Shown here piece by piece: positions 1 to 49,821 of a DNA stretch of 62,538 nt. The DNA comes from Mycoplasmatales bacterium. GTDB taxonomy: Bacteria; Bacillota_I; Bacilli_A; Mycoplasmatales; JABAAY01. Below the pieces are notes generated by a model that saw only the letters and a program-made list of their open reading frames with translations, ran no database searches and was not told the DNA's origin. The position numbers and the translations under genes are program-made. Within the stretch, counting starts at the first letter, position 1, and each line of letters opens with the position of its first letter. The stretch spans positions 1 to 62,538 of the forward strand of contig JABABL010000004.1 of NCBI GenBank assembly GCA_014238225.1, given 5' to 3'.

Positions 1-1488
1 TCCTCCTTCAGTTGTTATAAAAATCGAATTTTCTAATATCCCAATAACATTATCGCCAGTAACAAATAGTGGATCAAAAGAGGGATTACTCAAAATAATA
101 GAGGTCATTGCAGTAACACTAGTATCTACAATTCTTACTGCCGTAAATAATGCATCCCACAACACTTGCGCACTACTTACCCCGCCCGGTGGCCTAGACG
201 TTAAACCATTAATACCCCTTGCTTCATTTAATAAGGTTTCACCGGGAGTTGGTATAGCTATTAAAGAGCCTACAGGATTATTAACAACGGGAGTTGAGGC
301 AAATTGACCAGTTGTTTCGTTTACAGAAATACCTGTAATTACAATTTCTGTATTCAAGTTAGAATATGTTGTTATTCGTCCACCCTCTGTAGTAAAAGTC
401 ATGGTTCCAGGATTAATTGTTGCTACAGTATTGCTTGTATTAGTAAATACAAAAGTATTAAGACTTGTGATGCTTATATTAGTGATTGCACTTATGTTTA
501 TATCAACACTATCAGTAAATGCATTAACAAATGCTTGATATAATAAAAAACTATTAGTTCCCACAGAAGGGGGATTAAAAGAACCTGTTCCGTTTAGTCC
601 GCGAGCTGCTCCAGTAATAACTTCGTTTGCAAAGTAAACAGGAGAAAGGCCACTAACTGAACTTGAGGTAGTAGAAATAGCGTTACCTGTGACAAAAATA
701 TTAGAAATCACAAAATTTTGATTTGAATTGTTAAAAAGATTTACGCCACTACCATCGGTATTTAAAGAGAGGATGTTTTGGTTTATTGTTATTTCAGAAC
801 CCGAAGGAGAAACCCGAACTTCTTGCATTTGTTGTGACTGCGGAACAGATAAATTGATAGAAGAAACGACAGTGGTTGAAGAGTTTGGTTCCAAACTTTG
901 AATTTGCTGCAGAATTATTTCATAAAGAGCTAATTGATTAACATCTGTTGGAGCATTAACTCCGTTTAGACCATTAATTAAAGAAATGAATGTGTCTTGT
1001 ACAAATTCACTGTTCGTTGTTGAGGGAACTAAAGAATCCGAAGAAATCATTAAATTTATAAGCGAATCGCCGAGTGTTGTTATATTGGAAAAAATTAAGT
1101 TAGTTGAATTTACATAAGTTTCATACGTTCCTCCGGCTACTCCTATTGTCATTGTATTTGCAGCAATCACAACGGTGTTTTCGGTGCGGTTGATAGTGAT
1201 TGAAGATACAGGGGTTAAAACATTAATAGAATTAATGTTTTGAATGTCACTTTCATTGTTTGTTTGCAAGTTTTCTAAAATAGTTCTAAAAATTACACCT
1301 TGATTACTAGTTGGGTTGGGAATGACTGCTGTTTCGCTTAATGCAATTAATGCAGACTGAACTATGTCTTCGCTGGATAATCCACTAGGGGGTGTGTTTC
1401 CACAGGCTTGTGCTATCGAAGCAGTCGCTATTCCTCCACCTACAGCAGCACTTGTTAGAGCTGCAACAATAGTGGATTTCTTTTTCAT
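1..1488 (-). CDS. Large surface lipoprotein with ~120-aa degenerate repeats (partial; 3' end runs off the window)
   Basis: Manual translation: MKKKSTIVAALTSAAVGGGIATASIAQA-C29 (basic N-region, hydrophobic H-region, lipobox-like AQAC). Frame is open for 496 codons to the window edge and is N/S/T/I-rich. Not in the ORF track because there is no stop in the window. Confidence 0.85.
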   Translation of the reverse strand, partial: MKKKSTIVAALTSAAVGGGIATASIAQACGNTPPSGLSSEDIVQSALIALSETAVIPNPTSNQGVIFRTILENLQTNNESDIQNINSINVLTPVSSITINRTENTVVIAANTMTIGVAGGTYETYVNSTNLIFSNITTLGDSLINLMISSDSLVPSTTNSEFVQDTFISLINGLNGVNAPTDVNQLALYEIILQQIQSLEPNSSTTVVSSINLSVPQSQQMQEVRVSPSGSEITINQNILSLNTDGSGVNLFNNSNQNFVISNIFVTGNAISTTSSSVSGLSPVYFANEVITGAARGLNGTGSFNPPSVGTNSFLLYQAFVNAFTDSVDINISAITNISITSLNTFVFTNTSNTVATINPGTMTFTTEGGRITTYSNLNTEIVITGISVNETTGQFASTPVVNNPVGSLIAIPTPGETLLNEARGINGLTSRPPGGVSSAQVLWDALFTAVRIVDTSVTAMTSIILSNPSFDPLFVTGDNVIGILENSIFITTEGG

Positions 1489-1495
1489 ATAATTA

Positions 1496-1501
1496 ATTAT
1501 A
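1496..1501 (-). promoter_or_regulatory. -10 box (TATAAT) 7 nt upstream of the lipoprotein ATG
   Basis: ATTATA on + strand at 1496-1501 in the divergent intergenic region. Confidence 0.5.
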
Positions 1502-1551
1502 AATGTTTATAAGAAAAAGATAATTAAAAATATATTTGTGATATTTCTATT

Positions 1552-1557
1552 TACAAT
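1552..1557 (+). promoter_or_regulatory. -10 box (TACAAT) 6 nt upstream of rsmE ATG
   Basis: Same 6-nt spacing recurs at many genes in the window. Confidence 0.5.
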
Positions 1558-1563
1558 AAAACA

Positions 1564-2253
1564 ATGCAACACTATTTCGTTCCTAAAAAAGAAGATGAAA
1601 AAGTTTTTTTCTACGAGTTAGATATTTTTCATATTAAAAAAGTAATGCGTTTTAAAAATAATCAGAAAGTAATAACTATCAATAACGGTTATCACTATGT
1701 TACAGAATTGGTGATTAAAAATTCTTCTGTTGTAGGAAATATTGTTGAAAAACTGGACGTGAATAATGAGAACATTAACAAAACATCAGTATTTGTCTCA
1801 ATTCTCAAACCCAAAAGATTTAATTATTTAATTCAAAAAGCTTCTGAATTAGGAGTTAATGATATTTTCCCGGTTATTTCGGAACGCACTGTAACAAAAT
1901 TTAATTCCGAAAAAGAAAAGGAAAAAAAGATAAAACAATGGAGATGAATTGCGAAAGAAGCGGCGGAACAATCCGAGAGAAACTACATCCCAAGAATTCA
2001 TTCCATAAAAACTATTGATGAGATAAAACCCGGACCAAGCGCGAATTATTTAGCCGATACAAAATTACGAACAACAATGACTAAAAATATTCAAACAGTA
2101 GATGAAACATGTTGTGTTTTTGGTCCAGAAGGAGGATTTAGTTCGAATGAGATTGAAATCCTTCATGAAAAGGGATTTAGTAGTATTTCTCTAGGGAAAA
2201 GGATATTGCGATCCGAGACCGCTCCTGTTGTTTTTCTTACACTATTTCTCTAG
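1564..2253 (+). CDS. rsmE: 16S rRNA m3U1498 methyltransferase
   Basis: HIKKVMR, QKASELGV, AKEAAEQSER, FGPEGGFS and LGKRILRSETAP motifs; TGA read-through to TAG at 2251. Confidence 0.95.
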
Positions 2254-2255
2254 AA

Positions 2256-3068
2256 TTATAGTTCTAAGTCTTCGGCTGCTTCTTCATCTAGTAGTCATCA
2301 ACAATTAGGATGTTGAAATAAAATAGTTGCAGGTACTTTTAAAGTGGGTTTTTTGTCTTTATAAGAAAAAATCTCTTTTAAAATTTCATTTTTTATTTTT
2401 CCAGTTACAGTCATAAATATTTCTTTGGCATTCATTATACTTTTTATTCCCATGCTAACAGCATAGTGGGGAACATTGTCTCCTTTACCATCAAAATATA
2501 GGTGTGCATTTCTATCGATAGTTTCGTTGTGTAATTTAACAAGATGTGTTTCTGAATCTCAAGGAGTACCGGGTTCGTTGAAGGCAATATGGCCATTAAC
2601 TCCCAATCCAAGAAGTTGAAAATCTAATCCCCCCCTGCTTTCGATCATTCGATCATAACCTGAAAAATTATGATAGTCCATATTCTTTCCTGAGTCAAAC
2701 TCTTTACAAATTTGTTGTGTGTAATTTTCATGCTCACAAAATGAATAAGGAAAATATGTACTCCTTAAATCAATGTTAAGGCGATGAAAAAAGTTATTAT
2801 CCATATAATATTTATAACTTTGTACATCATCGTGCATTAAACCTACGTATTCGTCTAGATTAAATCCTGTTACTCTTGCATAACAAGTGTTATTTTTTTT
2901 TGCAATACTAGCGATGGCATTATAGTTTGAAACCTGCGAAGAACCTGTCGCCAAACCCATAATTAATCCGGGGTTTTCATGAACCATTTTATCAACTCTT
3001 TCGCCCAAAAAATATGCTAATTCTTCTTTTGTTTTGAATATTTTTACTTTTGTTTTCATTTTCTGCAC
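2256..3068 (-). CDS. nagB: Glucosamine-6-phosphate deaminase
   Basis: GLATGSS, FNLDEYVGL, LGLGVNGHIAFNEPG motifs; reads through TGA to TAA at 2256; alternative ATG at 3059. Confidence 0.95.
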
Positions 3069-3220
3069 TTTTCTTTCTTTTACTAACTCATTCTACAATG
3101 AAATTTATTCGTTAGAACAAATATATCAAATTAATGCTGCAGAAAAACAAGGAAAAAATTGTCTTTGGAAATAATAAAATAATTACAATAATAAACTTGT
3201 TTAGTCTTTATAATGAAACA

Positions 3221-3793
3221 ATGCTACAAAAATTAAGAAGACAATATCGAATTTGAAGTTTTTTGGTTTATTTATCACTGGCAATGATTTTAACAAGCGT
3301 TACAATTTCTCTATTCACTTATAATCAAGTTTTTTCAACACCCTTGCCGCGAGAGAGTGGATTAATAATATATTCCGTTTTCTTGTTTTTAGCAATTTTA
3401 TTTTATGGTTTTTATTTAATTCTTTCTCTTTCATATAAAAAGAAAACAGCAAGAAAGATCTTTAATTATTCGCTTGTATCTGTTATTAGTTATAGTTTGG
3501 TTTTACTTTTTGCATTTTTACAAACGTATTGATTTAGTATTTTTTCTGAACCTGCATCCTTTGCAGTGGTTATTCTGTTAATTGTTGTTCTTGGCATCAT
3601 AATATTGGCATCTGATTCAGTCATGTTAATCGAAAAAACAAGAATATTGGCTAGAATTGAAATTCAAGAGAAAAATAAAGTGGTTACAGAAAAAGGAAAA
3701 GATAATCTAGAAAAAAAGGAATGATGAACAAACAAGGAAAAAGTGAAGATAAATAATAAAAAACTCAAAGAAGACCAATATTTTAATGATTAA
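3221..3793 (+). CDS. Hypothetical membrane protein (~4 TM helices, Lys/Glu-rich C-terminal tail)
   Basis: Code-4 open frame from ATG 3221 to TAA 3791; four hydrophobic stretches; TATAAT at 3209-3214. Confidence 0.75.
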
Positions 3794-5114
3794 CCCTTTA
3801 AAAACTTTCGCCATACATACTCTAGGTTGTAAAGTAAACACATATGAGAGCGATTACATTCACCAAAGTTTAGAACAACAGGGTCTAAAATCAGTGTCCT
3901 TTTCTGATAATGCGGATGTTTACATAATAAATACTTGCAGCGTCACAAATACAGCTGAAAGCAAAAGCAGAAATTATATTAAGCGTGCTCGTAAACGAAA
4001 TCCTAATGCTATAGTTTGTGTAATTGGTTGTTATAGTCAAATTAAAGCACAGGAAATTAAGAAAAGCAAATTAGCAGATATTATTTTAGGTCAAAACAAA
4101 TACGATTTATGAAAGTTTATAAGACAATTTTCTAAAAATCCTAAAACCATAATAGAAATAGAGAAGTTATACCAACGCGATGATAAGAAAAAAACTGAAT
4201 TTCAAGAAAAAATTGTTTCTGCGTTTGTGACAAGGACTAGAGCATTCATTAAAATTCAAGAAGGTTGTAACAATTTTTGCACGTTTTGTATCATTCCTTA
4301 CACACGAGGAAAAATGAAAAGCAAACCTAAAGAATTAATTTTTAAAGAAATAAATAACGTTGTAGAAAAAGGGTGCAAAGAGGTTGTTCTAACAGGAATT
4401 CACACAGGCGGTTATGGTGAGGACTTAGATGATTACACTTTTTCCAAATTATTATGGGATATCGAAGCTAATTGTAAAAATTTGCAACGTTTACGTATTT
4501 CATCAATTGAAATTACTCAGATTGATGATTTATTCGTTGAATTCCTTAAGAATAGTAAGATTTTAGTTGACCATCTTCATATACCAATTCAAAGCGGAAG
4601 CGAAAGAATTCTTCAAAAAATGAGAAGACATTACAATAAAAAGGAGTACCTAGACACAATTAACAAAATAAGAGAAATCAAACCATTAATCAGTATTACA
4701 ACAGATGCAATTGTTGGATTTCCTACTGAAACAGACAAAGAATTTTCCGAATATTTAGATTTTGTAAGACTTATTAATTTTTCAGAAATGCATGTTTTTC
4801 CATACAGCAAAAAAGACCGAACCCCTGCAGCTTTTATGGAACAGGTATCGGAAGAAACTAAAAAAACAAGAGTTAATAAAATGTTGAGACTAAACGATGA
4901 ATTAGCAGAGGCATACATAAATAAGAACATGAATAAAAATCTTGATATTTTATTTGAAAACGGAAAAGAAGTTGGGAAGTATGTTGGATATACAACCAAC
5001 TATATTAAAATAGTTGTGAGTAGCGAAGAAAATTTAGTAAATCAAATTAGGAAAGTTAAAATTACTGCTCCTCACTACCCCATATCTGAAGGAGAATTAG
5101 TTTATGGCATTTAA
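3786..5114 (+). CDS. mtaB: tRNA ms2t6A37 methylthiotransferase (radical SAM)
   Basis: TLGCKVNTYES, INTCSVT, QEGCNNFCTFC (CxxxCxxC), HVFPYS and a C-terminal TRAM-like region. Confidence 0.93.
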
Positions 5115-6951
5115 AAGAAAACCAGCAATAAAAAAACGCAAACCAGATACAATACTTGTTGGTGGTGGGCTTACTAGTTTAATTTCTGGTGCTTTTCTAG
5201 CGTGTCGCGGCTTTAAAGTGATAATTTTTGAAAAAAATAGTTCTGTTGGCGGAATGCTTGCATCAAGAAATAAAGTGATCAATCAAAAAAAATACAGTAT
5301 TCCTGGTGCTATTCCTTTGCTGCCTGCGTTGGAACACCCCACCATGAAGAGTATTTGAGAATTCACTAAGATTGGCTCAGTTGTAAAATTTCAAAAAGCT
5401 AAACAAATAACCGTTTTGAAAAACAACACTTCTGAAAAGCTTATCCCTAATGATTGAGTTATGCTTCAAAAAAGACTAAAACAGAAATTCCCTAAAAGTT
5501 CTGATCTAATAGGTAAATTTTTTAATTCTTTGAAAAAAGTTTATGCTGACTTATCTAGAAGTTTTTATTTTCACGAAGACGAAAAATATATAAATGGTTT
5601 CGAGTTTCTTAAGAATTTTTTCAAAAATGAAAGCCTTGCTAATGAAATTATTCTAATATCTAATGCTTTTGATTTTGAATCCGAAAAATGTAATAGTCGT
5701 GAATTAATGTATAATTTGGCACTTTACTTGATAGGCGGTGTATATGAAATATTGGGTTCTCCTCACCAAATTGTTGAAAAACTTTCTGGAATTATCGAAG
5801 CGTATGAAGGAGATATTTATACAAAAACTCCCGTGGAAAAAATTATGTGAAAAAATAACCTGGTAACAGGTGTAGTCGCAAATAATAAAGTATGAAGAGC
5901 GAAAAAATATTTAATTAACGCCCCTCTTCCTTATGTAGTAAAAAAATTAGTTCAAGTGAAGTCCGTTAAATTGAGCAATTATGAGAAGTTATTAGAAGAA
6001 AATGATGGGACTCTTTTTACTTTAACAATGAACTTTTACACATCTCAAAACTGAAGGAAGTTCGGATTTTATAAACCAAATTTCGTGGTGAACCCTTCGG
6101 AAAATTTTATTAAACAACATTCATGTTTGCAAGCAATATCTGGTAAAACTAAAACAATTAAAATAACAAATAACGAATTAATTTATGATTCTGGCGATAG
6201 AACCAGAAAGCCATTAAGTGTACATATTCAAACCACTGAAAAACAATTAGCGGATTTAAAAATAAAGAAAATGGATTCGTTTGCTGACCAAATTTTTGAC
6301 TATTTAAAAACCATTTGACCAATGCTTAAGACCATTCAATATCAGACAATTGTCGAAGGATTGCAATATCAGAAAAAAACATTAAATTCTTTATCTGGTA
6401 GTGATTACGGATTTGCCAATGATTCAAAAGTTTTTTGAGGAAATTATACATCTCAAACACCACTATTAAATCTGTATGTTGGTTCTAGATATGGATACCC
6501 TGGACCAGGAATTGCAAGTGCTTTTTTTGGTGGTGTGTTTGTTTCAAATTTAATGCTAATAAAAATCAATAAATCAAGTCAGAAACTATATAAACCAGAT
6601 TATCTTGACGGAGAAAATTATTTAAATTACATGATTAATGTTCACAGAACTATTCCTAAGAAATTACATGGTAAAAAATTAGGGATTACTTTCGATAAAG
6701 AGAACAGTTTTATTATTTCTTTTAATAAGGATAACACTTGTGTTTTGAAAAAATCTGAATTTGATGGAGCTCTAAATGAAGAGTTTTTTTGCTATGCAAC
6801 ATTGGCTAATTTTAAATCGTTATATACACACCGATTATCCATGTTTCTAGCTACTTTCCAAAATAAAATTCGTTTAAAAGGTAAGCTAAAAACATTTAAA
6901 ATAGCATTGAGGACATTAGGTTGAAATCGAACAAGAAAGGAATATTATTAA
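5104..6951 (+). CDS. FAD-dependent oxidoreductase (phytoene desaturase CrtI/retinol saturase-like) with putative C-terminal SCP2-like domain
   Basis: One 615-aa code-4 ORF. N-terminal VGGGLTSL...IFEKNSSVGG dinucleotide fold; TPLLNLYVGSRYGYPGPGI resembles the CrtI C-terminal motif; tail ...SMFLATFQNKIRLKGKL resembles SCP2. Confidence 0.7.
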
Positions 6952-6952
6952 T

Positions 6953-7594
6953 ATGGAACTTAATAAATATATAGACAACACAATTTTAAGGGCGGATGCA
7001 AAAGAATCTGATATTGAAAAAATATGCAAAGAATCAGTCAAGCATGATTTCAAATCGGTTTGCGTTAATCCTTTATGAGTGAAGTTAGTTAGAAAACTGC
7101 TGAAGGGGTCGACAGTACTTACTTGTACAGTTATTGGTTTCCCATTGGGAGCAAACACAATCAAGCAAAAAGTCAAGGAAACAAAACTTGTCATCAAAGA
7201 TGGAGCACAAGAAATAGATATGGTTATTAACATTGGTGCTGCTGTATCAAAACAATGAGATTACTTGTTAAAGGAAATTAGTGCTGTTAAGAAAGCATGT
7301 AAGGAATTAACATTGAAAGTTATTGTTGAAACAGCATTATTAGATACAGCAACAATTGCTAAATTAACAAAAATCGTTAATGAATCTGGTGCAAACTTTA
7401 TAAAAACATCCACTGGTTTCTCGACTAGTGGTGCAAAGATATCGGATGTACAAACAATGAACAAAAACAGAAATGAACACCTTATGATTAAGGCTTCTGG
7501 CGGAATTAAAACAAAAGAAGATGCAATGAAAATGATAAAAGCTGGTGCAAATAGACTAGGAACATCATCGGGTATCCAGATAATAAAAAAATAA
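6953..7594 (+). CDS. deoC: Deoxyribose-phosphate aldolase
   Basis: [48 protein letters not shown]. Confidence 0.97.
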
Positions 7595-7604
7595 AAGGAA
7601 AAAA

Positions 7605-9290: not shown

Positions 9291-11336
9291 GTGTTAGAGA
9301 AGGAATTAAATTTTATTCAAACAGAAGAATCAGAATGTGGAATTGTTTGTATTTTACATTTACATTACTTATTCTTTCAACGAAATATACCAAAATCACA
9401 AATTAAAAGTTTTGAGCATGTTCCTGAAAAGGGTCTAAATCTCAATAGTTTAAGTTTTATTGGTAGACAATTAGGTGTTTCAATTAGTTGATTTAAAGTA
9501 GATTATGATGCATTTCGAAAGAGAAAGCTAAAACATTCTATTGTTTTAATAAAAAAGAAAAATGTTTTTCACTATGTTATAGTCAATAAAATTAAACATA
9601 ACACCGTTTTTTTTGTAGATCCAAACTACACAGAAATACAAACTATGTCATCGAAAGATTTTGAAAAAATTTTTCGAAATACAGTTGGAATAACTAGAAA
9701 GTCAAACTTCAATTTATTCTACATAAATCAACTTAGCGGAATCCAAACCAAGAGTTTTGCAGATGTTTTCAAGCAATTTTTTAATTATCGTGTGTATATA
9801 GTTTTTGTTTTTTTATCATCTTTTATAGTATTTCTCTTAGGATTGTTTTCCGGTTTATATTTGCAAATAGTATTAAACACAATCATCCCAAATAATTTAA
9901 CTACATTGTTATTAAGTGTGTCAGGAATTTTCATATTTACCACTATTTATAAAAATATTTTTGATTTTCTTATGAAACTGTATTTGTTTAAAATTCAATC
10001 CTTAATTGAAGGAGATTTTGAATATTTTTTTCAACAACAAATATTTTTAAAAACCAGTGTGTTTATTCAGAATACGGAGCCAAATCTTTACTTTCAACGA
10101 TTAGGAAACATTGGAGAATTAATTACTAATGAATTACAAAAAAGAATTTTTGTTCCCATAAATTTAATCATAGGAGTGATTTCAGTAGTTATTATTTTCA
10201 CAATAAATATTTATCTTGCTGCTGTGTCATTATTTTTTGTAGTCATAATTTTATTACTAATAAATCTGTTTATAAATAAAATAGTGACATCAAAGAAGAA
10301 CGTATTAAAAATTACTAATAAAAAAAGATCCCTTCTAACTAAAGTGTTTTTCAATAACGCCTCGATTAAAGGGAAAAATGATAGTGATAAAATTGCTGAT
10401 CAACATTCTACAATACTGAAAAAATATATTTCTACAGTAACTAAAGATCATTGAATTAATTCATTTTTTGTCTTCAACAATTCCTTGTTTTCGGGAGTAT
10501 TGAGTGTTCTAATTGTTTTTCTTGGAACAGTATTTATTATCGCTAACCAATTTACTGTGGGTTCTTTATTCTTTTTCACTACAATTTTTGGTATTTTTCA
10601 ATCATCTTCCTCTCAACTCTTCAATTTTCTTGTCAATATAAAAAAAAATAAAGTTAACTTAGAGTTAATAAATGACTTTCTTAACTCAACAACAGTAGAA
10701 TTTTACAAGGGAGTTAGTGAAAAAGTTAATTTTCATAAAATACTATTTAAAAATATTTCTTACTCCTACGAACATAGTAAAAAAATTCTCAACGGACTTA
10801 ATGGTGAAATAACTTCAAACTTATTAATACAAGGAGGAAATGGAACTGGTAAATCAACATTTTGTAAAATAATTGCAGGTATTCATACGCTTCAAAATGG
10901 AGAATTATTAATTGATGACATTTCAATTAGTGATATTTCTCACTATTATCTAAGAGAAAATATTTTATATATTTCTTCCAATTCTATAATTATAGAAAAC
11001 ACAATTTTTGATGCGATAAAAGACTTTCTGTTCACGTTGCAAGAAACAGAAAGAAGTTTCTTGTTATCGTTGTTACAAGAGATGAAACTAAACTTAAAAC
11101 ACGACATTGAATGAGATGGGAGCAACTTATCTGAGGGTCAAAAACAATTTATTAATTGTCTACCTATTTTTAATACAAAAAGCAAAATTTTAGTTTTAGA
11201 TGAGGCATTCTCCAATATTAGCATTCTGATAGTGAGAAAAATAATATCACATTTGTCAGCCAGGGGAAAAGTGATAGTTTACGCAACTCACGAGAAAGGT
11301 GCAGAGGATTTATTTCAGAAGCAATTATTATTATAA
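9291..11336 (+). CDS. Peptidase-containing ABC transporter (C39 peptidase + TMD + NBD)
   Basis: QTEESECG (catalytic Cys), FHYVIV (His), FVDPN (Asp); 6-TM-like region; Walker A GGNGTGKS, signature LSEGQ, Walker B LVLDEA, H-loop ATH; 681 aa in code 4. Confidence 0.9.
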
Positions 11337-11722
11337 TGAAAAAGAATTTTAATAAAACAATTTGAATTTTTACGTCTGTTGCGAGTTCATTTGCAATAAT
11401 TTTTAGTCTATTTCTTATTTTGCTTCCGATTGAAGTTACCACAACAAAAACAATTCAAGTTACATCTCGAAATGATGTGGTGCTTTTAATTCCGGCTAAT
11501 GAATTACAAAATTACGATGATAAGAAAACCCTTAGCGGAAGTATTGATAATACTGAATTGCTTTTCAATATATTTAGCATAAGTATTAGTGAAAGCAATC
11601 CTTCAATTTATGAATTAGTCTTAACAACTACTAGTGACTTAAATTTCATTCCCGGTACAGTTTTACCTTTTAACATAGTGCTATCGAGTGTTAAATTGTG
11701 AGAATATTTATTTTTACTATAA
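11336..11722 (+). CDS. Single-TM protein translationally coupled to the C39 ABC transporter (putative export accessory factor)
   Basis: ATG overlaps the transporter TAA (TAATG); N-terminal TM followed by a beta-rich domain ending VKLWEYLFLL. Confidence 0.7.
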
Positions 11723-26417: not shown

Positions 26418-28286
26418 ATGAAAATTGAAGAAATAAAAGATCCAACTTTCCTGAATAATTACGATGTAAAAAAAATGGAAACACTTTCCAAAGACATTAG
26501 ACAATTCCTTATTGAAAAAATTACAAAATACGGTGGTCATTTAAGTAGCAACTTAGGAGTGGTAGAATTAACTATTGCCATTCATTTTGTTTTTGATTTT
26601 TCAAAAGACAAACTTGTTTTTGATATCGGTCATCAGTCTTATGTCCACAAAATTTTAACCGGGAGAGGAAAAGATTTTCACACACTACGACAATTAAATG
26701 GACTTAGCGGCTTTCAATCTCTAAAAGAAAGTGAATATGACCATTCTGAAGCAGGACATGCAGGAACCAGTATTGGAATAGGAATGGGCTTGGCATACTC
26801 AAGTAACGTTAACAATATAAGAAATAATGTGATTTCTATCATTGGCGATGCTAGTATTACTAATGGTGTAGCATTGGAATCGTTGAATGATTTAGGTCAT
26901 AGAAATCACAAGTTAATAATTGTGTTGAACGATAATGAAATGAGCATATCTCAAAATATTGGTTCATTACAACAGTTTTTAGGACAGTTAAAAACAAAAG
27001 ATACTTTAAGAAAAAATTACGAAAAATATTCTAAATTGGATAAGGCAGAATTAATTCCTGCATTAAACATTTTAGGGAAAGCAATTTTTAATCCTGTGAA
27101 GAAAAATTTTGCGCCACAAAATTTATTTGAAAATTTAGGATTAGAATACATGGGTCCAGTAAGTGGGCATAATATAGGTGACTTGATTTATGCGCTAAAT
27201 AAAGCGAAAGAAACCACTAGGCCTATTGTTTTACATGTTAAAACTGTTAAGGGAAAAGGTCTAAAAGACGCAGAACTTGATAAAGATGGAAAATTTCATG
27301 GTTTAGCTAAGAAGAATGTTTCGCTTGGAAATTTACTATATAAAAAATCATGGAGTGAGATTATTGCTTTCATTGTTTATAAAAAAATGAAAAACAATTC
27401 AAAAATCACTGTTATAACCCCCGCTATGAAATCCGGTAGTAAACTTGAAAAAATATTCTCAGATTTCCCAAAACGATCTATTGATTCTGGTATAGCTGAA
27501 TCTCATGCAGTTTTAACAGCAGTAGGGTTGTCCTTAGGAAAAGCCAGACCTTTTGTCTCAATATACAGTACTTTTTTACAAAGAGCTTTTGATCAGATTA
27601 TTCACGATGTGGCAAAAATGGAGCAACCTTTAATTTTCGGTGTGGATAGATGTGGAATTATTGGAGAAGACGGAGCTTCTCACCAAGGACTCTTTGATCT
27701 TCCGTTTTTGCTTAACATTCCCAACATTGTGGTTATAACTCCAAATAATCAAGAGAAGGCTGAGGAAGCCTTTAATTATGCTTTTGCACAAAAAGCAAAA
27801 GCCGTTTTCATTAGATATTCAAAAAATAAAATTTTCTTTAATTCTGATTTTTCTACTTCAAATAAACTAGAAATCGGAAAATGAGAGAAGGATGCTTGGG
27901 ATAGTAAAAACAACAGTTGTATTATTTCTTATGGTGATTTTTTTGATGATATCAAGGAATACTTGAAAAAAAACGACAAAAAAATTAATTTAATAAACGC
28001 TCTTTTTCAAAAACCTATTGATAAAAAGATGATGTTAGAAATAGCTAAAATGAAGTATATTTTAGTATACGAGGAGTCTTATATAGAAGGAGGTTTGGCA
28101 AGTAAAATGCTAAACTTTTTTAATGAGTTGCGTCTTGAAAATATGCCTAAAATTTTAGTAAGAGGGATAAAAGGAGATTTTATTCAACACGGAGTAAAAA
28201 ATGAAGTCATGTTGTTAAATAAATTATCACCCGAACAAGTGTTCAATGAATTTAAATCTTTTATTGATTTAGATGAAACAAGATAA
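26418..28286 (+). CDS. dxs: 1-deoxy-D-xylulose-5-phosphate synthase
   Basis: GGHLSSNLGVVELT, DIGHQSYVHK, GDAS..G...ESLND, GIAESHA, YSTFLQRAFDQ, DGASHQG. Confidence 0.96.
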
Positions 28287-29420: not shown

Positions 29421-30410
29421 ATGTACTATATGAAAACAACTGCAGTTTATCCTTCTAAAAACTTAAAAGTGTCACCTTTATTGAAGGTTGAACCAAAACA
29501 CGAAGCAGTAATAGAAGTAAAAAATTTAAGTAAAAAATTTGGTAAAAAAAACGTTTTAAAAAATGTATCGTTTTCGGTTTATCCTGGCACTATACATGGT
29601 TTTATTGGAAAGAATGGCGCAGGAAAAACAACAACTATAAAATCCATCATTGGTGGTTATTTGGTTGAATCTGGACAAATAACAGTGTGCGGCGCTGCAG
29701 CAGGAACTAAGGAAGCGAAAAAGCAAATTTCCTATATTCCTGAAAACACAAGATTCCCATCCAATCAAACTGTACAAAGCTATTTATATTACATGGCAAG
29801 AATATCTGGTTATTGTAGAAAGGATTCAAAAGCAGTAATTGACTTATACTACAAAGAAAATTTTATGAATTTAGCTCCGTTTTGAAAGGAAAACCCGGAA
29901 AAACTTTCTAGTGGCGAAAAGAAAAAAATATTTTTAATTCAATCTCTATTAATAACACCCAAAGTGTTGGTAATGGATGAACCTACCGCAAATTTAGATC
30001 CCGATGCTCGTTCTGATTTTTTTACCATTCTGAAAAAAATTAGATCACTGGGGGTGTCGGTTTTTATTTCATCACACATCTTGTTTGAATTAAATCAAAT
30101 AGTGGATAATATCACGGTTTTAAAAAATGGAGAGGTACTCTTTACAGGCAGTGTAAAGAAAATCAAAGACTCTCACAATAAATATGAGATTAGTTCTGAT
30201 AGTTCACAAAAGTTAACTAAAATTATTCCAAAAAAACTTAAAGCAACGCTAAAAAATCACGAAACTGTAGTGGTTTCTATAAAGAACAAAGAGGATATTG
30301 TGTTCATTCAAAATCTTGCAAGGGAAAACGAAATTACTATTTTCGAATTCTACAAACAACATCTTGATTTAAACACGATTTATCACAATCTAGATAAAAC
30401 TAAATCATAA
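29421..30410 (+). CDS. ABC transporter ATP-binding protein (ABC-2/drug-export type)
   Basis: GKNGAGKTT, LSSGEKKK, VMDEPTANLD, SSH. Confidence 0.93.
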
Positions 30411-32158
30411 TGCCAAAAAAAAACGAAAAAACACAAACATCTCTCGAAACAATTTTGAACGAAGAAATTAGTGAAATAACAACTCAATTAGATTCTTTTA
30501 CAAAACAAAATTGAAATCTGGCTATTTTTATTTTTTCTTTTAAATCCTTTCTAAAGTCAAAACTTTCCGCTGGTATAATTTTGATGGGTGCTTTTATTAG
30601 TTTTGGATTGACACTTATATATGCCATTACTTCAAGAGGATCATTGGATAATTTCACTAACTCTTATTTCCCATTATTAATTGCTGTATTGTTAACTTTT
30701 TATTCTTTCGCATTCACATTTGTGTTTGTTGCTGGACGGGTCGTACAAACATTTACAAAAGAGATAGAAATAGGTATTATGCTCGTTATTCTTTCCAAAC
30801 CCGTTACCAAAAGAAACATTTTTTTCCAAAAATACTTCGGATTACTTGCCTCTATAGTCGTGTTCGCGTTAGTGTTAATGATAGCATCTTATCTTTCAAT
30901 TTGATTGGGAATAGTATTGGGAGCTTTATTGAGTTCTTCTAGTGGTGGTGTAACAATATTAAATCAAGTAAATGTAATGACTCAAATTTTATCGAGAGAG
31001 TGAAATATAGTTCAAGCAGTAAGCGCATTGGTTTTTTTATCCGCATTGTTTTTAATTTTTTTCATGACCGTTCTATCTGGTGTTTCAATTTTCATATCTT
31101 TATATTTTAATACCATAGTGTCCACCCTTATTATAGTTGGCGCTGGATTAATAGGTTTTTTCAGTGGTTCGCTGCTTCCAGCGATTATAAATATTACCAC
31201 TCTCACAGCTACCACAAATACAACCCTTGCTGAGTTGTTTCCTACAACAAATTCAGGAGGGACGCGTTACGAGGGCTTTGTTTATAATGGTGATTCTTCA
31301 AATGCCACACTAGAACAAATAGAAGCGGAAGGCTCTGAATCTAACCTAAACAATATTGTAGAAGCAATTCCTGGAACCATTCTTACATCGCGCAGTCGAG
31401 GTCCTTTTGTAGATATGCTGAGACAATCCTTGACTCCTAATGCCCAATATTCAAATGATTATTACTATACAGGATTGTTAAATGTAAACCCACTTGCTGG
31501 TGGTAGTTCAGGCTTTGATACACTGCCTGCTGGTTTTAATACCTTGATACCTGACATTGATACTCTAAATCTTAGTGCATTTCCTTTTTTAACTTCAAAT
31601 CAAAATTTATATATAGGAACAAGCAGTATATTGGGTACAACAAAACAGCTACCTTCATCAACCAATCCTTTTTTAATTAGGGCGTTACCGATTTTTGTTG
31701 AAAGTTTTGTTGAGAGTTACAATAGGACATCCATTGCTAATTATTTTGCTTCTCTTTTTAATGTTGCTTATCATGTAAATTCAATGTTGGGTGAAACAAT
31801 TTTGACAAACACTCCTATTATTGTTAATTCATTTATAAATTCTGAACAAAGTATCACTAACCAAAATTTTGGGTTTAATTTAGACTTTAGAATATACATT
31901 ACATCTTTTTCTTACTTAGGAGACATGAACGTATTTTCTTATGAAACATCTGCCGGCACAGGTGATTTAAGGCCAACACAATCAGAAGATGGTGTTTTAC
32001 AATACGGCCAGTATACTAATATACAATTTCCTATATACGTAGCAAATAATCCGCAAGAACTTTACCCTGTTGGTTCTATCTTCGGTGCTTATGGTATTGT
32101 AGGAATAGGGTCTTTGGTGACCTCTTATTGAGTATTTAAAAGAAAGGCGTTGACTTAA
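30410..32158 (+). CDS. ABC-2 type permease with a ~295-aa extracellular loop
   Basis: TAATG coupling to the ATPase; KEIEIGIMLVILSKPV..R...FFQK motif; about 6 TM; ends WVFKRKALT. Confidence 0.85.
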
Positions 32159-40974: not shown

Positions 40975-40979
40975 CATCA

Positions 40980-42901: not shown

Positions 42902-44174
42902 CAATCAAAAATCCGATCATTTCTTCTATTTTTTCGAAGGCAAACTCAGTTTCTTTTTTTGTTTCTAAGTTTTTAACTTTTATAGACTGATTTTCTAAAT
43001 CCTTGTTACCTAGAAAAACAATATTAACTGCCTTTTGTCTTTCTGCATTTTTGTATCCTGCTTTTATGTCTATTTCTGTGTCACTCATAGCAACTCTTAT
43101 TCCGTTTTGTCTAAGAATGGTAGATAGTAAAGTTCCCAAAACATAACTCCCAGAATTTAATAACCCAATGTATAAAAATAGTTTGTTACCGTAATTATCT
43201 TTAGGAAAAGAGTCTTCAATGTGCATTTGTCACAATAGTCTCTCAATACCAATGGAAAAACCTATACCCTCAACTCCTTTGGGACCTCCTATTTCTTCCA
43301 CTAAATGATTGTATCTACCTCCACCCAATAAACTATTGCTTTCATTCTCTTCTCTTGTGCTCACAACTTCAAATATAAAATCATTATAGTAATCTAATCC
43401 CCTCACTAAACGGCTATCCTCTGTGTATTTAATTTGCAAATTATCTAAAAGTAGTTTTATTTCTGCCATTCTAGTCGTCTCTTGTTCCGATAAAAAAGAA
43501 GATATGTTTTTCATATTTCGCAACACGATATTATTTGTGTCTATTTTACAATCCAAAATTTTTAAAGGTGACTTAAGAATGCGATTTTTACAATCTATAC
43601 AGAATGTTTTGATTTGGGAACCAACAAAATCAAGTATGTATTCACAATACTTTTTCTTTGTTTCCTTGCCTCCTATAAAATTAATTTTAAATATTCATTC
43701 CTTAAGCCTTAGCGAAATCAAAAAAGTATTTATCATGCTAATAATTTCAATATCGTTAGCTACATTGTTTTTGTCAAAAATTTCAGCGCCACATTGTCAG
43801 AATTCTCTGTTTCTTCCTTTTTGTGGCCGATCGTATCTAAACATATTTTCTCAATAGGCAATTTTTACCGGTAACTTATGGTCTTCTAGTAATTTATTTT
43901 CAACTACTGAGCGAACTATCCCGGCGGTGGCTTCCGGCCTTAAAGCGAATGTTCTTCCTTTTTTGTCTTGAAAAACAAACATTTCTTTGGAAACAATATC
44001 ACTGTTTTCTCCAATTGTTCTGTTAAATAACTCGGCCATTTCAAAAGTAGGAGTGTTTATTTTGTCAAAACAAAATAAATTGCTGATCTTATCAAAAATA
44101 TAATGAACATTTTGCCAAACAGAAAAAGCAGAAGGTAGTATTTCACTAGTGCCACGTGGTTTTTGGTACTTCAT
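42888..44174 (-). CDS. hisS: Histidine--tRNA ligase
   Basis: KPRGT, LRPEATA, RYDRPQKGR, LVRGLDYY, GGGRY. Confidence 0.96.
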
Positions 44175-44193
44175 TATTTAGGATTTTAACATT

Positions 44194-46371
44194 TTAGGAG
44201 TTGTTTCTTTCTACGGAAATCAACTTTGAATATCTTCTTAAGTTTCTCATGATGGTGTTCAAATGTTCTAAATCCTTTACATTAACTTTTAAATTAAATA
44301 TTGCTTGACTTAACTTGAAAATAGGCTTTGATTTCATTTCTGAAATAGTTGCCTTAGCAAAAGATATATTGTTTGTTATTTCCAAGTAGTTATTGCTTTC
44401 TTGCTTAACAACGACCTTTATACTGCTAACATATTCATTATTAATTGTTTTTTCTGTATTCCAAGTTGCTTCCATTCACGATTCAGAATTATTTTCTCGT
44501 GCAATAATTTTTTTAAAATTGGTACATACGTTTCTATGTATTTTAAAGGAATGTTGTTTTGAAATAAGGCCAACTATTAGTTCTCCAGGAATTGGATAAC
44601 AACACTTTGCTATGTCAATTTTCATGTCCTCTCCGCCTTTAACTATAATGTCGTTTTTAAGTTTTGACTTTTTAGAAGCTGTAAAAACAATTTTCTTTTT
44701 GGGTTCACTTTTTAATATTTTGTTAACAAAATAGGTCATTTTAATTGTTCTATTACCCACTTCTTTTAAAAAATGTTCTGTGCTTAAGTATTCTTCTTGC
44801 TTAAGAATCTTTAAAAATTGTTCCTTGTTGGAATATAATGCAGCTAAGTTCTCATTTGCCGCACAAAATTTATCAAATATAGTCTTTCCTTTGTTAATTA
44901 ACGTCTTGTTTGTGTCTTCTTGCTCGGTTCTTAAGTATTTATTGATTACTTTCTGTGCTAAACTAGTTGAAACTTTTGAGAGTCACTCTCTTTTAGGAAA
45001 AGAGTTTTGATTAGTTTTAATCTCCACAACATCCCCGTTATTAATTTGTTTTTCTAATGGAACAAGCTTGTTGTTTATAAATCCACCTGACGCGTGCATT
45101 CCCACTTCTGTATGAACCTTGAATGCGAAATCTAACACAGTGGAACCTCTTTTAAGTGAGAGAACATCCCCATTTGGAGAGAGGGCAAAAATCTGTGATT
45201 CAAAAACTTCGTTATGCATTTCTTTTATATATTCGTCATCCTGCTGAAGCTTAGAGTGACTCTTTTCAAATTCGCTTAACTGCTGAAAAAATCATAGCTT
45301 GTTCTCAATTTGCTTTTGTTCATCCTTAGGATTGTAATTTGTATTTTCCTTATATTGTCAGTGCGAAGCAATTCCTGTTGAAGCAACTTGATTCATTTCC
45401 TCAGTTCTAATTTGTATTTCAACAATTTCCTTATCGATAATTATTGCTGTGTGGAGGGATTGATAAAGATTTCTTTTGGGACGAGAAATGTAATCTTTGA
45501 ATAATTCAATTACGTAGACAAAATTATTTTGAACTAATCCAAAAATTCTATAACAATTGTCTTCTGTATTGGTGACAATTCTCAAGGCTAAAATGTCATG
45601 AATTTCAGAAAATTTTTTATTCTTGTCATTCATCTTTTTGTAAATAGAGTAGATTGATTTTACTCTAGCACTAATGTTAGATTTGATGCTTTTGGAGGAA
45701 ATAACTTCTTTTAGTTGGGCTTCTAATTTTTCTAATGTGTCGTTAACATCAGACACAAAAAATTTTGTCTTTTTTTCTACTTCGTAGTATTTTTTTGGTT
45801 CTAAAGTTTTAAAACATAAATCACTGAATTCACTGCTAACGTCGTGCATACCAACAAGATATGCGATATTTCGGTAAATGTAAAATGTCTCTGTTGCAAT
45901 TCTTTTTTGTTTTGCAGGAGGGAGATATTGTATAGTTCTCATATTGTGTAACCTGTCGGCCAATTTAATCAGTATTACTCTGATGTTGCTTGCCATACTA
46001 ATAATGAGGCGCCTTACATTCAAATAGTCAATATCTGTAGTTCTGTAGCCGGCATTTTTGATCTTAGTCATTTTTTCAACTAAAAAACAAATATCTTCGT
46101 TAAACTCTTTTGTAATGTCTTCGCTCGATACATCTTGATCTTCTACAACATCATGCAGCAGTCCCGCACATATCGTGTTAGGAGAGACACGTCATTTGCT
46201 CAGTTGTAATCCAACAGATCACACATGCACAAAATATTCTTCTCCGCTGGCTCTTTTTTGATTTTTATGTTTGTTGCGAGCATAATTAAAGGCTTTTTTT
46301 ATTAGTTTTATGGAGTTTTCTTTGTGAATGTACTTAGAACATTCGGTGTGCAGTATTTCATAATAGTCCAT
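44194..46371 (-). CDS. relA: Bifunctional (p)ppGpp synthetase/hydrolase (RelA/SpoT homolog)
   Basis: QKRASGEEY, LHDVVED, KLADRLHNMRT, YQSLHT, EIQIRT, TGS domain, AKCCYPIPG, ACT domain; possible GTG start at 46392. Confidence 0.95.
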
Positions 46372-46409
46372 GTTGTTGTTATTTTGTAGCACTGGGCACT
46401 ATTAATTTA

Positions 46410-46934
46410 TTAAAGATCTAACAAGTAATGAATCGGAAAGTGAATTTTTGATCTTAATTTCTTTAGTTCTTCCAACTGACCTAAAAATACAGCTGCCACA
46501 ACCTTAGAATTTTCTTTTTCCACTAATTTTCCAGTGTTAACTATGGTTCCTCCTGTTGCAAGAATATCATCAACGATTAAAATTCGTGAATTGGGTTTTA
46601 TATCGTTTTTGTGAATGCATAATTCCGTTTCAGAATACTCTGTTGATACTTTTTCGCAGATATTGGGGCGAGGAAGTTTTCCAGGTTTTCGCACAGGAAC
46701 AAAGGGTATCCCCAACATTAGTGCAAGTGGGCATCCGAATATAAACCCTCTGGACTCAGGACCAACTATTACATCAGGATTATAATTTTTTACCAATTGT
46801 GCCATTTCAACAACAGAATATTGAAATGCTTTTGGTGCTGCTAACAATGGACAAATGTCTTTAAATAAGATTCCTGGTTTAGGAAAATTTTTCACTTCTG
46901 CTATATACAGATTCAAATCTATTTTGCTATTCAT
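46410..46934 (-). CDS. apt: Adenine phosphoribosyltransferase
   Basis: FPKPGILFKDI, PESRGF, RKPGKLP, VDDILATGGT. Confidence 0.97.
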   Translation of the reverse strand: MNSKIDLNLYIAEVKNFPKPGILFKDICPLLAAPKAFQYSVVEMAQLVKNYNPDVIVGPESRGFIFGCPLALMLGIPFVPVRKPGKLPRPNICEKVSTEYSETELCIHKNDIKPNSRILIVDDILATGGTIVNTGKLVEKENSKVVAAVFLGQLEELKKLRSKIHFPIHYLLDL

Positions 46935-46983
46935 ACATTTGTAATTTTACACTTATTTAAAGGTAGTGCTGTTTTTTTCAAGG

Positions 46984-49821
46984 TTATGAATTAATTCCCT
47001 TGAAAGTGTGCTCATCAATTTTTCGTCCTTTTTGTTCTACATTTTTGTTTATTTGTTTTGTTTTGTATAATCAGTATGCTTCAAAACTTATAAGTAGTGG
47101 CATGCTTCAAATTACAGGCAATAATACTCCGATAAACAATGCAATGATTAATGGTCCGGCAATCGAAGCTGTTATAATTGCCAGTGGTATTAAAACACTA
47201 ATCATAATAATTATCATAGATACCGAGAATATAATCAATCAACCTAAATTATCCTTATAAGTTTCATTAACAAGTTGTTTAATGGTTTGCTTAGTAAGCA
47301 CTTCATTTTTCTTCTTCAATAATTTAATTTTTTCGTTAAACGTGGAATACAGAGAAAATTGTGTTATTAGAAGAAATAATGCTACCATCATAAACCCAAC
47401 AACAACAAGTAAAAGTAAAGGGATTTGGAAAATCAACAATAAGCTTATTATTAAACCGAATGAACCTATTAATGAAAGAGTTATCACTAATAATTGAGAT
47501 TTCCTGTATCTAATAATTACAAATAATGCTAAAAATCCAAAGAATATTCCAAAAGCTCTGGCTAATTCAATAGCGGCCATTGAGCCTGTTCCCGGCAAAA
47601 TAACAGTCGCATTTGATACCATGATATCGCCTGGAGGAATACTAAATCTGCCAGCATTGTTGGCTATGGTGCTTCTTATTGTTCCTTCAATATTTCGATC
47701 AGTAGATAAAATGTCAGGAATATTTGTAGTAAAAATTAGTGCATCCCTTTTTAAACCAAAAATATCACCAGAATTTGCTAAAGTGTCTTCTAAAAAGAAT
47801 GTTCCTACTTCAACGCCAGTTACTCGATACACAGTGTTATTAGTAAGAACTTCATTAACTATATCTATAGCTGTTCTTCCATCGGATTGAATTCGGCCAG
47901 ACTCATTATCATTTATTGGTGCCTGCACAAATGAACTGCTTTGTTCGTTATCATAAATAACTATTTGTGCCCCTGGCTGAAAATCTGATTGAGTGTTAAC
48001 ACCAGCCGTAAGGGAAACGATTAATGCAATGATGGCGGCAACGGGAACAATAAATACATATCACATATTCTTGATTTTTATTGCTCATTTCTGTCTTACA
48101 ACTTTATGTTCCTTGTTTTTGTTCGTGCCTTTTTTTTGAAATTTATTTTTGAATCATTTCGTGTAACTAAAACTTCAATATTTTGCTGTTTTATTCATAA
48201 GAGAATTCACTGATAAAGGAAGCAGCAAAAAGGGCAAAAGAATAAATTGGACACCAAAGGAAGCTATTGTACCTGCAAAGATAACAACTGTAAATTCTCT
48301 AACTGGAGTTGTTCCTGAAAGTGTTGTTAAAAATAAAACAACTGAAAAAATGAAGAGAATAACGTGTAAATCAAATGCTTTTCAAATATTAAACTTTAAG
48401 GCGTTTTCCAATGATTTCCTGAAATCCTTGGTAAGGAGATATTCTTTTTTTACTCCTTCAAAAAATATAAATAACCGAGAAAAAACAAAAAGTAACATAA
48501 AAATAAACGCAAATATGCCCACAAAACTATATTGATTGGTGTCAGTGATACCACCGCTAGAAATGAAAACGTTAGAAATTAAAAATGATGCCATGCTAAA
48601 GGATGCGAGTAAAACTGTGCCGATTAAACCTAGTAATGCATATCTGAAAAGAAGTATCAAAACAAGAATAGAAAGAACGATAACTCCACCAATAATGAAA
48701 CCATTCCCGCTTCCCACTGTGAAGATTGCTGGTGTGTTTACCATGCTAACAAGCGAAACCCTATCGCTTAAACTGGAAGCATTTAGAACAGCAAGCGTCT
48801 GTAACAAAGTTTGTTGTGACGCAGTGTTAGTAACCATTCTAATTGAAGTGCTTGGTTCTCCTTCTGATGGGGCTTGAAATCTTCCAATGGATAATAGAAC
48901 GGGTTGATTCGTTTCTCCTGCCCTCAGAGAATTCCCCAAGACACCTATATTACTTAATTCTCCTTCGCCATTAAAATCTTGATCACTTACAGTAACAGTT
49001 GGAATTCCTGAACCGCTTATTGCACGTGCTCTAAAAAGGTTGTCAGGAGTGGCTGATGAAGAATCAGCAGCAGCCACACGCGCAAAATAAAGGGCGATAT
49101 CTCCATTACCCGTATTAGCGGCAGCGAGTTCAATCATAGAATTTCACGCATCGGCATTAGACACATTAAAATTAATTGTGGATCTGTCCGGTTGGTCATC
49201 ACCTGACGCAGGTGTGTCAACGCTTCCAGAAAAACTGTTAGCTGTGATAATGTTAGCACCGTAATAAGAGCTGTCAGCACTTGCGGAAAGTGTATTGTTA
49301 TCAGTAAACAATGACCCTTGACCGTTCCCAAAACCAAGTAAACTGTGTTGAAATAGACTACTGAAAGATTCGTTGTTGTTTGCTGAATTTGAAAGAGAAT
49401 TAATTTCTTGTGTAGTTACATCACCGATAGTAAAAGAAATGGTGTTGTCATTGGCTTGAACAGAAGTTGGATCTATTCGAGCGTCAGGGATTGCATCAGG
49501 TTCCATTGCTTGTAAGTAACTTAAATAATTTCCTGTTATGTTGATTGCTGTTTGCTGATCAAGAGCATAATTTATTTCTTGATTATCATTAGCGTCCTCG
49601 GGAAGCTCTACACGTAAAGATACGTTAACGCCACTACTTAAATTGTAATTTACTCTAGCAGAAGTATCGTTAACTCTTGTTGCACCAACAACAATAGCTG
49701 AAATACCAAGAGCTGCACCAGCAGAAAACATCAAACTTTTTCAATAAAGAGGTCATCGGTTAAATTTAATTTTTTTAGTTGCTTCAACAACTTTTTTGTA
49801 CCACGGTTTATAGTGTTTCAT
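46984..49821 (-). CDS. secDF: Divergent fused SecDF-like membrane protein
   Basis: 945-aa code-4 ORF with TM + large loop + 5 TM, twice; GVNTQSDFQPG resembles SecF GIDFTGG; Bacillus position between comN and apt. Confidence 0.8.

Follow-up and report, generated by a model that had tools for sequence, protein, structure and literature searches.

Why should a bacterium whose cytoplasmic proteins contain about one lysine in every ten residues keep this amino acid out of almost everything that it exposes on its outer face? The question is raised by a 62.5 kb stretch of DNA from a Mycoplasmatales bacterium (contig JABABL010000004.1; the window, meaning the whole stretch analysed), which is densely coding when read with TGA as tryptophan (genetic code 4) and which is contig C44 of a genome of 679,536 bases (G000; 60 contigs, 32.8% GC, 88% complete). 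Together with a single congener (G001), this genome forms a family of its own within an order of 15 families of small genomes that read TGA as tryptophan. An earlier note on the window had drawn attention to a lipoprotein, a SecDF-like protein and an ABC permease whose outer domains are nearly or entirely devoid of lysine, and had proposed a strong selection on surface chemistry. Our results show that in this lineage purifying selection removes lysine, and histidine, from the mature lipoproteins and from the outer loops of multi-pass proteins, that cysteine, which Mollicute lipoproteins contain little of anyway, drops even further here, and that arginine supplies the few remaining positive charges, lysine being otherwise replaced by serine, threonine, asparagine, glycine, alanine and proline. 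They point to a strong selection on cell-surface chemistry that was previously undescribed.

The window proteins that raised the question are listed in Table 1, with the exceptions considered below. The residue counts of the earlier note were recovered with these boundaries, for the lipoprotein P0001 (no lysine, histidine or non-lipidated cysteine after Cys29) as well as for the SecD-like, SecF-like and permease loops, and arginine is indeed retained. In the permease P0003, which itself has no Pfam match, the single lysine stands alone between residues 142 and 576, leaving lysine-free runs at 142-411 and 413-576. Given the cytoplasmic lysine frequency of this genome (10.26% of 118,404 residues), the binomial probability of such counts is 1e-22 for the lipoprotein, 1.6e-15 for the SecD loop, 6e-6 for the SecF loop and 1.8e-19 for the permease. 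The inner parts of the same proteins (cytoplasmic loops and signal peptides) are lysine-rich; in the SecDF-type protein P0002 lysine is abundant at the N-terminus, in the linker (about residues 541-586) and at the C-terminus. In agreement with what had been said of cytoplasmic proteins, the window open reading frames (ORFs) without predicted membrane segments contain 8.0-26% lysine (8.0-15% apart from one ORF of 50 residues).

Table 1. Positions of the features discussed. Plain ranges refer to the window; ranges with a contig number (C) refer to other contigs of the same genome, G000.
Feature	Position	Strand	Remark
Mature lipoprotein P0001, residues 30-496	1..1401	-	0 Lys, 0 His, 0 Cys, 8 Arg in 467 residues
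P0001 signal peptide and lipobox, MKKK...SIAQAC	1402..1488	-	Lys-rich n-region; Cys29 is the predicted lipidation site
Membrane permease P0003	30410..32158	+	Directly after the ABC ATPase gene (29421-30410)
P0003 large outer loop, about residues 258-553	31181..32068	+	1 Lys, residue 412
Fused SecD/SecF-type protein P0002, 945 aa	46984..49821	-	Weak SecD_SecF_C match, layout, phmmer
P0002 SecD-type outer loop P1, residues 51-365	48727..49671	-	0 Lys in 315 residues, 3.5% Arg, 0.3% His
P0002 SecF-type outer loop P4, residues 611-747	47581..47991	-	1 Lys in 137 residues, 5.1% Arg, 0 His
Small N-anchored protein beside the ABC exporter with C39 peptidase	11336..11722	+	4 Lys in an outer part of about 97 residues; partial exception
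Signal-like proteins without lipobox Cys, part 1	C2:1-754, C3:2127-2888, C5:1271-2668, C6:2208-2864, C8:3600-4331, C59:5412-6071		
Signal-like proteins without lipobox Cys, part 2	C59:12237-13472, C59:15367-16884, C55:1079-1987, C11:90528-93227, C11:116934-117383		

The assignment of P0002 draws on several lines. The protein is multi-pass and has the SecDF layout, with two large outer loops, hydrophobic flanks and a lysine-rich linker between the halves; its match to PF02355 (SecD_SecF_C) reaches 17.0 bits (E 0.0039), under the Pfam cut-off of 20.5, and a phmmer search gave 21 matches, namely three near-identical fragments and 18 distant proteins. The nine long AT-rich matches inspected all have the layout with two large loops. 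A SecDF fragment with 70% identity (P0006), whose source we take to be a less closely related member of this clade, carries arginine where the P4 loop has its lysine and no lysine at all in the SecF loop. As for P0001, whose gene (1-1488) runs past the contig start, it belongs to a cluster of 44 BLAST-linked ORFs, mostly lipoproteins. An AlphaFold2 model built with nine paralogs (mean pLDDT 71.9) predicts about four modules, each with some 120 residues forming two helices and then a sheet. A Foldseek search of this model against the PDB returned no match at E of 0.001 or below, and resemblance of single modules to NTF2-like or VirB8-like folds was discarded as too weak to count (TM about 0.3-0.37 per target). 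The main lipoprotein family has neither a Pfam family nor an ESM Atlas match, and P0001 found only two matches among 5.8 billion proteins, both of them fragments of the window's own products.

Is this depletion peculiar to a few proteins or general? The comparison of inside and outside was extended to a simple set of 718 ORFs of the genome (8.3% lysine overall). Lipoproteins were defined by the motif ..[AS]-Q-x-C and not by composition (n = 47); the cytoplasmic set comprised proteins without membrane segments, leaving out ORFs under 100 aa and 5'-open ORFs; membrane helices were located by a simple hydropathy scan, and ORFs containing X were excluded from loop and anchor counts. The 47 mature lipoproteins hold 82 lysines in 19,820 residues (0.41%), where the cytoplasmic frequency predicts about 2,034, while the signal peptides of the same genes contain 11.6% lysine. 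Twenty of the 47 have none, and the longest lysine-free runs of the genome (1008, 847, 636 and 631 residues) fall within the definition of a lysine desert as an extended, unbroken region devoid of lysine (PMC13696103). The outside/inside ratios are 0.04 for K, 0.05 for C, 0.14 for H, 0.50 for M, 0.67 for W, 0.68 for Y, 0.70 for E and 0.75 for R, so that K:R is 1:6.6 outside against 2.8:1 inside. Serine, threonine and asparagine are 1.5-1.9 times as frequent outside as inside (asparagine reaching 10.4%), valine, alanine and glycine rise together with threonine, and glutamine is also enriched. There is no acidic excess (D+E 9.7% outside, 12.0% inside and 12.6% in the lipoproteins of relatives), and the lipoprotein surface, with a net charge of about -6.6 per 100 residues, offers hardly any primary amines.

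Over the whole ORF set, a lysine-free stretch of at least 100 non-membrane residues occurs in 74 of the 718 ORFs, which fall into 28 unrelated BLAST clusters. One paralogous lipoprotein cluster accounts for 44 of them and the other 30 are spread over 27 further clusters; SecDF, FtsH, OppA-like and PstS-like binding proteins, an FtsX-type permease and a PTS EIIC are among the proteins concerned. Other extracellular domains of this genome thus do not have normal lysine contents, and the earlier argument that foreign origin is no explanation, which had been made from SecDF, now extends to several housekeeping genes. Of the multi-pass protein loops that are 40 residues or longer, 26 of 130 have less than 0.5% lysine, compared with 5 of 243 in relatives. 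A loop-parity reading of topology was consistent for 13 of 30 proteins; because the hydropathy scan merges adjacent helices (SecDF gave 9 segments), this reading is uninformative and was set aside. In the 8,167 desert residues of the 30 proteins outside the big paralog cluster, H is at 0.19x and C at 0.18x of the cytoplasmic frequency, with W at 1.05x, Y at 0.93x and R at 0.94x; the comparison values in relatives are 0.81x for H and 0.51x for R. When the lipoprotein ratios are divided by the relatives' own outside/inside ratios, one obtains 0.04 for K, 0.14 for C, 0.17 for H, 0.42 for W, 0.63 for Y, 0.76 for M and 1.48 for R. The robust signature is therefore a loss of lysine and histidine, a further drop of the already rare cysteine, and a relative gain of arginine. 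The avoidance of cysteine that had been claimed along with that of lysine is real (0.05x) but largely ordinary, relatives being already at 0.32x; exclusion of cysteine from the outside is likewise found in bacteria without disulfide-forming enzymes, and is only somewhat stronger here.

In a Pfam scan of 20 extracellular or membrane proteins, 16 have no family, and the other four matched SBP_bac_5, FtsX, PEP-utilisers (PtsI) and, weakly, SecD_SecF_C. The lipoprotein pathway is represented by Lgt (84.7 bits) and by two LspA matches above cut-off. The residues preceding the lipobox cysteine are strongly conserved, mostly AVAQ, with a variable -1 position (A, S, Q, G, M, T, E or F). Glutamine at -2 is unusual for a lipobox; it was built into our search pattern.

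To place the trait among relatives, we sampled 15 genomes outside the genus, one from each of the 14 other families and a second one from family f5, with 100 kb per genome (35 kb for G007); the congener (69 kb) was kept out of the pooled relatives. In ten of the 15 genomes, 61 lipoproteins were recognised, with an average of 10.5% lysine against 11.3% in the cytoplasm (ratio 0.93) and a minimum of 3.4%; their H and C ratios are 0.82x and 0.32x. Mollicute lipoproteins are thus normally lysine-rich, as had been assumed, and the related Mollicutes do not share the depletion. A set chosen without the motif (one N-terminal helix) gave the same picture, no protein of the 15 genomes lying under 2.9% lysine, whereas 20 of 43 in G000 lie under 2%. 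Of lysine-free non-membrane runs with 100 residues or more, G000 has 97, the congener has 8 in its 69 kb and each other genome has 0-3, none of these last exceeding 120 residues; the four motif-bearing lipoproteins of the congener contain 5, 0, 0 and 1 lysines. Since the lipoproteins recognised in the other families are lysine-rich, the trait is a derived one that does not extend beyond this lineage. Orthologous proteins behave in the same manner. PstS has 1.7% lysine in G000 and 4.8-13.5% in 16 relatives, and nine AT-rich SecDF-like representatives from a library of 1.84 billion proteins have 5.3-10.2% lysine in the first large loop and 3.3-11.0% in the loop equivalent to P4. Of 11 PstS columns that are mostly K in relatives, G000 has K once, R once and another residue nine times, which is too few for a rule of replacement. 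Within the order, the SecDF and OppA ortholog searches found only the congener, a homolog search with the PstS-like protein gave one match (92% identity), and a search of other genomes for the locus found no relatives, only 14 unrelated GyrB/ParE loci (39-41% identity).

In two other families, f3 (G003) and f6 (G006), most N-anchored proteins have about 5% lysine against 9-10% in the cytoplasm (L046-L050, L061-L065), and G003 has 27 lysine-free runs with 60 residues or more; the same tendency may be present here in a milder form. In all four f13 genomes (L148, L150, L151, L153), the outer domain of FtsH has 0-1 lysine, 0-3 arginines and 10-13 acidic residues, whereas other N-anchored f13 proteins have 12-22% lysine. 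The feature thus seems to be a charge peculiarity local to this one protein, and makes the FtsH ectodomain a poor proxy for the trait. A single-gene, midpoint-rooted tree of the FtsH core puts f1 beside one f4 genome, from which no claim is drawn.

The selection acts on the protein and not on the DNA. In the DNA of the mature lipoproteins, AAA and AAG together make up 0.41% of triplets in frame against 5.3% and 6.4% in the two shifted frames, so that this same DNA abounds in lysine triplets that are not read as codons; for CAT and CAC the values are 0.27% in frame against 3.1% and 3.7%. The higher GC content of lipoprotein DNA (36%, against 32.5% in cytoplasmic genes) is due to the missing AAA codons. 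We also compared G000 with its congener, using pairs with at least 70% identity and skipping multi-pass proteins. In three lipoprotein pairs (1,523 mature columns), lysine took part in none of 155 substitutions and all six lysines were conserved, against 226 of 1,051 substitutions in 32 cytoplasmic pairs (Fisher p 2e-15). Since asparagine (AAT/AAC) makes up about 10% of the ectodomains, lysine codons must arise constantly by single changes, yet they are not kept; selection against ectodomain lysine is continuing. The strong selection proposed in the earlier note is thus supported by the out-of-frame triplets, by the substitutions and by the genome-wide pattern.

What could the selecting agent be? 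From composition alone, the best fit is in our view an avoidance of covalent capture at nucleophilic side chains, which we put forward tentatively. It is favoured because lysine, histidine and cysteine share a nucleophilic side chain whereas arginine lacks one; the guanidinium group is not a nucleophile, and arginine would for this reason be tolerated. It is these three residues that quinones, unsaturated and simple aldehydes and hypohalous acids attack in proteins. The benefit would lie in leaving no point of attachment for covalent reactions, in the host or in the habitat, that are directed at nucleophilic side chains; quinones from phenoloxidase or tanning systems, reactive aldehydes or hypohalous acids are candidate agents, and might otherwise cross-link, tag or immobilise a wall-less cell. 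More speculatively, a surface essentially without primary amines and imidazoles might be a general defence against covalent capture. Among the candidate causes suggested in the earlier note, chemistry directed at nucleophiles therefore fits best and a saline or alkaline niche worst.

Several observations weigh against covalent-capture avoidance. Serine and threonine, the targets of hydroxyl-reactive thioester proteins, are enriched, and so is glutamine, the acyl donor of transglutaminases; capture by hydroxyl-reactive thioesters and entrapment by transglutaminase (PMC2820530) are weakened accordingly. Tryptophan and tyrosine depletion is confined to the big paralog family and methionine is reduced mildly, to 0.76 of the relatives' ratio, so that a broad oxidant is not indicated. 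A single lipoprotein resembling glycoside hydrolase family 18 (GH18) holds 25 of the 82 lipoprotein lysines. Moreover, 11 proteins with a lysine-rich N-terminus and a hydrophobic segment rich in glycine and alanine, but without a lipobox cysteine, contain 3.8-6.7% lysine; their histidine, tryptophan and tyrosine are ordinary, and they are rich in tryptophan, tyrosine, aspartate and glutamate. Should these Cys-less proteins be located at the surface, it would not be free of amines. They may be displayed, released or not exported at all; signal peptidase I was not found in this 88%-complete genome. The claim is therefore limited to lipoproteins and to the outer loops of multi-pass proteins. Many of their genes adjoin those of lysine-free lipoproteins, which suggests gene pairs or cassettes, and none of the nine scanned has a Pfam family. 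The small accessory protein of Table 1 does have the four lysines reported for it; the peptide with a double-glycine leader, cited earlier as a second exception, was not located, and no cargo of this kind was found for the exporter with C39 peptidase, which together with the small protein that follows it occupies window 9291-11722.

The setting seems to be marine and possibly host-associated. The sequencing runs carrying this DNA are labelled as marine metagenome (one study, four samples) or as one coded organism (a second study), none of those listed being an RNA run, and the best-matching run may be the source sample. This second label gives some ground to the main rival explanation, evasion of ubiquitin-type tagging. 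On this view the bacterium is cytosolic in a eukaryotic host, where a wall-less cell would present nothing but its surface proteins to ubiquitin or ubiquitin-like ligases, and removal of lysine blocks the ubiquitin coat that leads to autophagy. A strong preference for arginine over lysine, as seen here, is a hallmark of lysine deserts that evade ubiquitin. Only proteins retained on the cell would matter, which could explain the lysine of the Cys-less class, and Rickettsia parkeri shields the lysines of its outer-membrane proteins by methylation for this very purpose (PMC8232902). The likeness lies in a host-associated bacterium neutralising outer lysines to escape covalent tagging; in R. parkeri, however, the lysines are kept and masked by two methyltransferases, whereas here they are deleted from the sequences themselves. 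Ubiquitin evasion also leaves the 5-7-fold depletion of histidine unexplained, and serine and threonine, the non-canonical ubiquitin acceptors, are enriched. Furthermore, the gene content (two GH18-like lipoproteins, NagB, PTS, OppA, PstS and a bacteriocin-type exporter with C39 peptidase) points to an extracellular, competitive life. An ATP/ADP translocase was not found, although the same search was silent in control genomes too. We therefore regard ubiquitin evasion as unlikely, if still the strongest of the alternatives to covalent-capture avoidance.

A physico-chemical adaptation to the medium, in which lysine would be destabilising or charge-altering under salt or under extreme or fluctuating pH, seems improbable to us. 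The habitat is marine, and proteins become more stable in salt when their surface lysines are exchanged for arginine or for small polar residues (Tadeo et al. 2009, cited in PMC13696103). The exposed proteins of halophiles and alkaliphiles likewise have fewer lysines, retained arginine and more small and polar residues, and the rise of threonine, valine, alanine and glycine with the fall of lysine, methionine and cysteine partly resembles the halophile signature. This signature, however, needs an acidic excess, and Asp plus Glu are here less frequent outside than inside or in relatives. Alkaline adaptation would keep histidine and disfavour asparagine, whereas histidine is down and asparagine up. 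To our knowledge, the salinity of seawater does not give lysine-free exported proteins in marine bacteria generally. Moreover, the depletion is near-total rather than graded: 0.4% lysine and its absence from all 155 substitutions look like an intolerance of each residue and not like a bulk property, and the lysine-bearing Cys-less class, if exported, shares the same medium.

Less probable again is protection from a lysine-specific endopeptidase, either of the host or the bacterium's own feeding enzyme. The loss of lysine with arginine kept would suit an enzyme of Lys-C type rather than of trypsin type, but the depletion of histidine and cysteine is left unexplained, no member of the subtilisin S8, Trypsin_2 or Mycoplasma DUF31 peptidase families was detected in this genome (88% complete), and we know of no lysine-specific host protease for such habitats. 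Finally, although the size of the one paralogous cluster and its specific tryptophan and tyrosine depletion might suggest a mere by-product (of a low-complexity paralog family, foreign DNA, avoidance of A runs, mis-binning or the positive-inside rule), we give such an origin almost no credence, because the other 27 clusters include housekeeping genes, lysine-free and lysine-rich loops alternate inside single proteins on a contig that carries ParC/ParE and AlaS, AAA and AAG abound out of frame, the missing AAA codons account for the GC shift, arginine is not depleted in domains of up to 1,008 residues, and the pattern recurs in the congener with no lysine among the 155 substitutions. The positive-inside rule treats lysine and arginine alike and holds for short loops. 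It shares with our case a cytoplasmic side richer in positive charge, whereas here arginine remains at 0.75x in lipoproteins and 0.94x in other ectodomains (lysine being at 0.04x and 0), and the domains affected are 100-1,000 residues long. These data exclude mutation bias, foreign origin, DNA-level constraint, mis-binning and the positive-inside rule.

Lysine deserts are known from cytosolic components of the ubiquitin system, from catalytic subunits of toxins and from Actinobacteria with pupylation, and have been tied to ubiquitin-dependent degradation (PMC10665810, PMC10169902, PMC13696103). The present domains resemble them in their long continuous lysine-free stretches and in the preference for arginine, which are usually read as avoidance of a covalent modification directed at lysine. 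Known deserts, however, concern cytosolic single proteins or lie in GC-rich genomes, whereas here the outer face of the whole proteome is affected in a genome of 33% GC with an interior of 10% lysine, and histidine is lost too. The 2026 review (PMC13696103) contains none of the words extracellular, secreted, mycoplasma, effector or pathogen. We found no description of lysine-free surface proteins in Mollicutes in the full-text literature searched, outside which most subscription journals lie. What is new is a desert of lysine (and histidine) that takes in the entire outward-facing part of a proteome.

This extends the idea of the lysine desert from the cytosol to the cell surface, in a group where lysine is the commonest charged residue of surface proteins. 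A lysine-free stretch of 1,008 residues in a lipoprotein at 33% GC is far beyond anything in the 15 related genomes sampled, and the contrast between inside and outside in single proteins reveals selection on surface chemistry with unusual clarity. In this organism, lysine content could serve as a built-in marker of topology, and a hidden interaction between host and microbe becomes testable with simple tools. If the surface does act as a general defence against covalent capture, this bacterium would provide the first example of a whole cellular compartment closed to an amino acid, and its marine host or habitat would use a defence that chemically grabs microbial lysine and histidine, be it quinone tanning, haloperoxidase products, aldehydes or a lysine-directed conjugation. 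It might also offer a natural design rule for proteins that resist cross-linking and fouling.

Some further observations concern individual genes. The two GH18-like lipoproteins carry a D-x-D-x-E motif (L205, G000 C33:29321-31435, and L024, G000 C55:3453-5819). One of them scores 26.7 bits against Pfam GH18, just under the cut-off; a phmmer search of the PDB with the second gave one match at chance level, and nine of the ten proteins in the scan that included GH18-like and Cys-less proteins had no Pfam match. A gene of the glucosamine-6-phosphate isomerase type (NagB) lies at window 2256-3068, and together with these lipoproteins hints at the use of chitin or host N-glycans. The signal-anchored protein L026 (G000 C33:4569-6545) unites both compositions in one protein, with one lysine over about 535 residues followed by a lysine-rich C-terminal part of about 100; it contains nine tandem copies of an eight-residue repeat of Gly, Glu, Pro, Asp and Asn. 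A role of N-glycosylation was considered and rejected, as sequons are not enriched (400 observed, 436 +/- 16 in shuffles). Runs of N in the assembly are read as X in genes such as PtsI and one lipoprotein (C55:43015-45108, C3:8245-9648, C11:14416-16017), and the lysine-free run of PtsI, a cytoplasmic protein with the PEP-utilisers match, is an artefact of such a masked run.

The window also encodes ParC/ParE, AlaS, AspS, RelA/SpoT, DnaG, Dxs and the ABC exporter with a C39 peptidase domain, which scores 349 bits with the Mbov_0121 model, under its cut-off of 500 bits. Isoprenoid genes are uncommon in this order. Here, a pair of observations at window 5104-6951 and 26418-28286 concerns Dxs, which scores far above its model cut-off, and an FAD oxidoreductase of 615 residues with weak matches to carotenoid desaturase/isomerase models; a link of these two genes to oxidative stress is a speculation.

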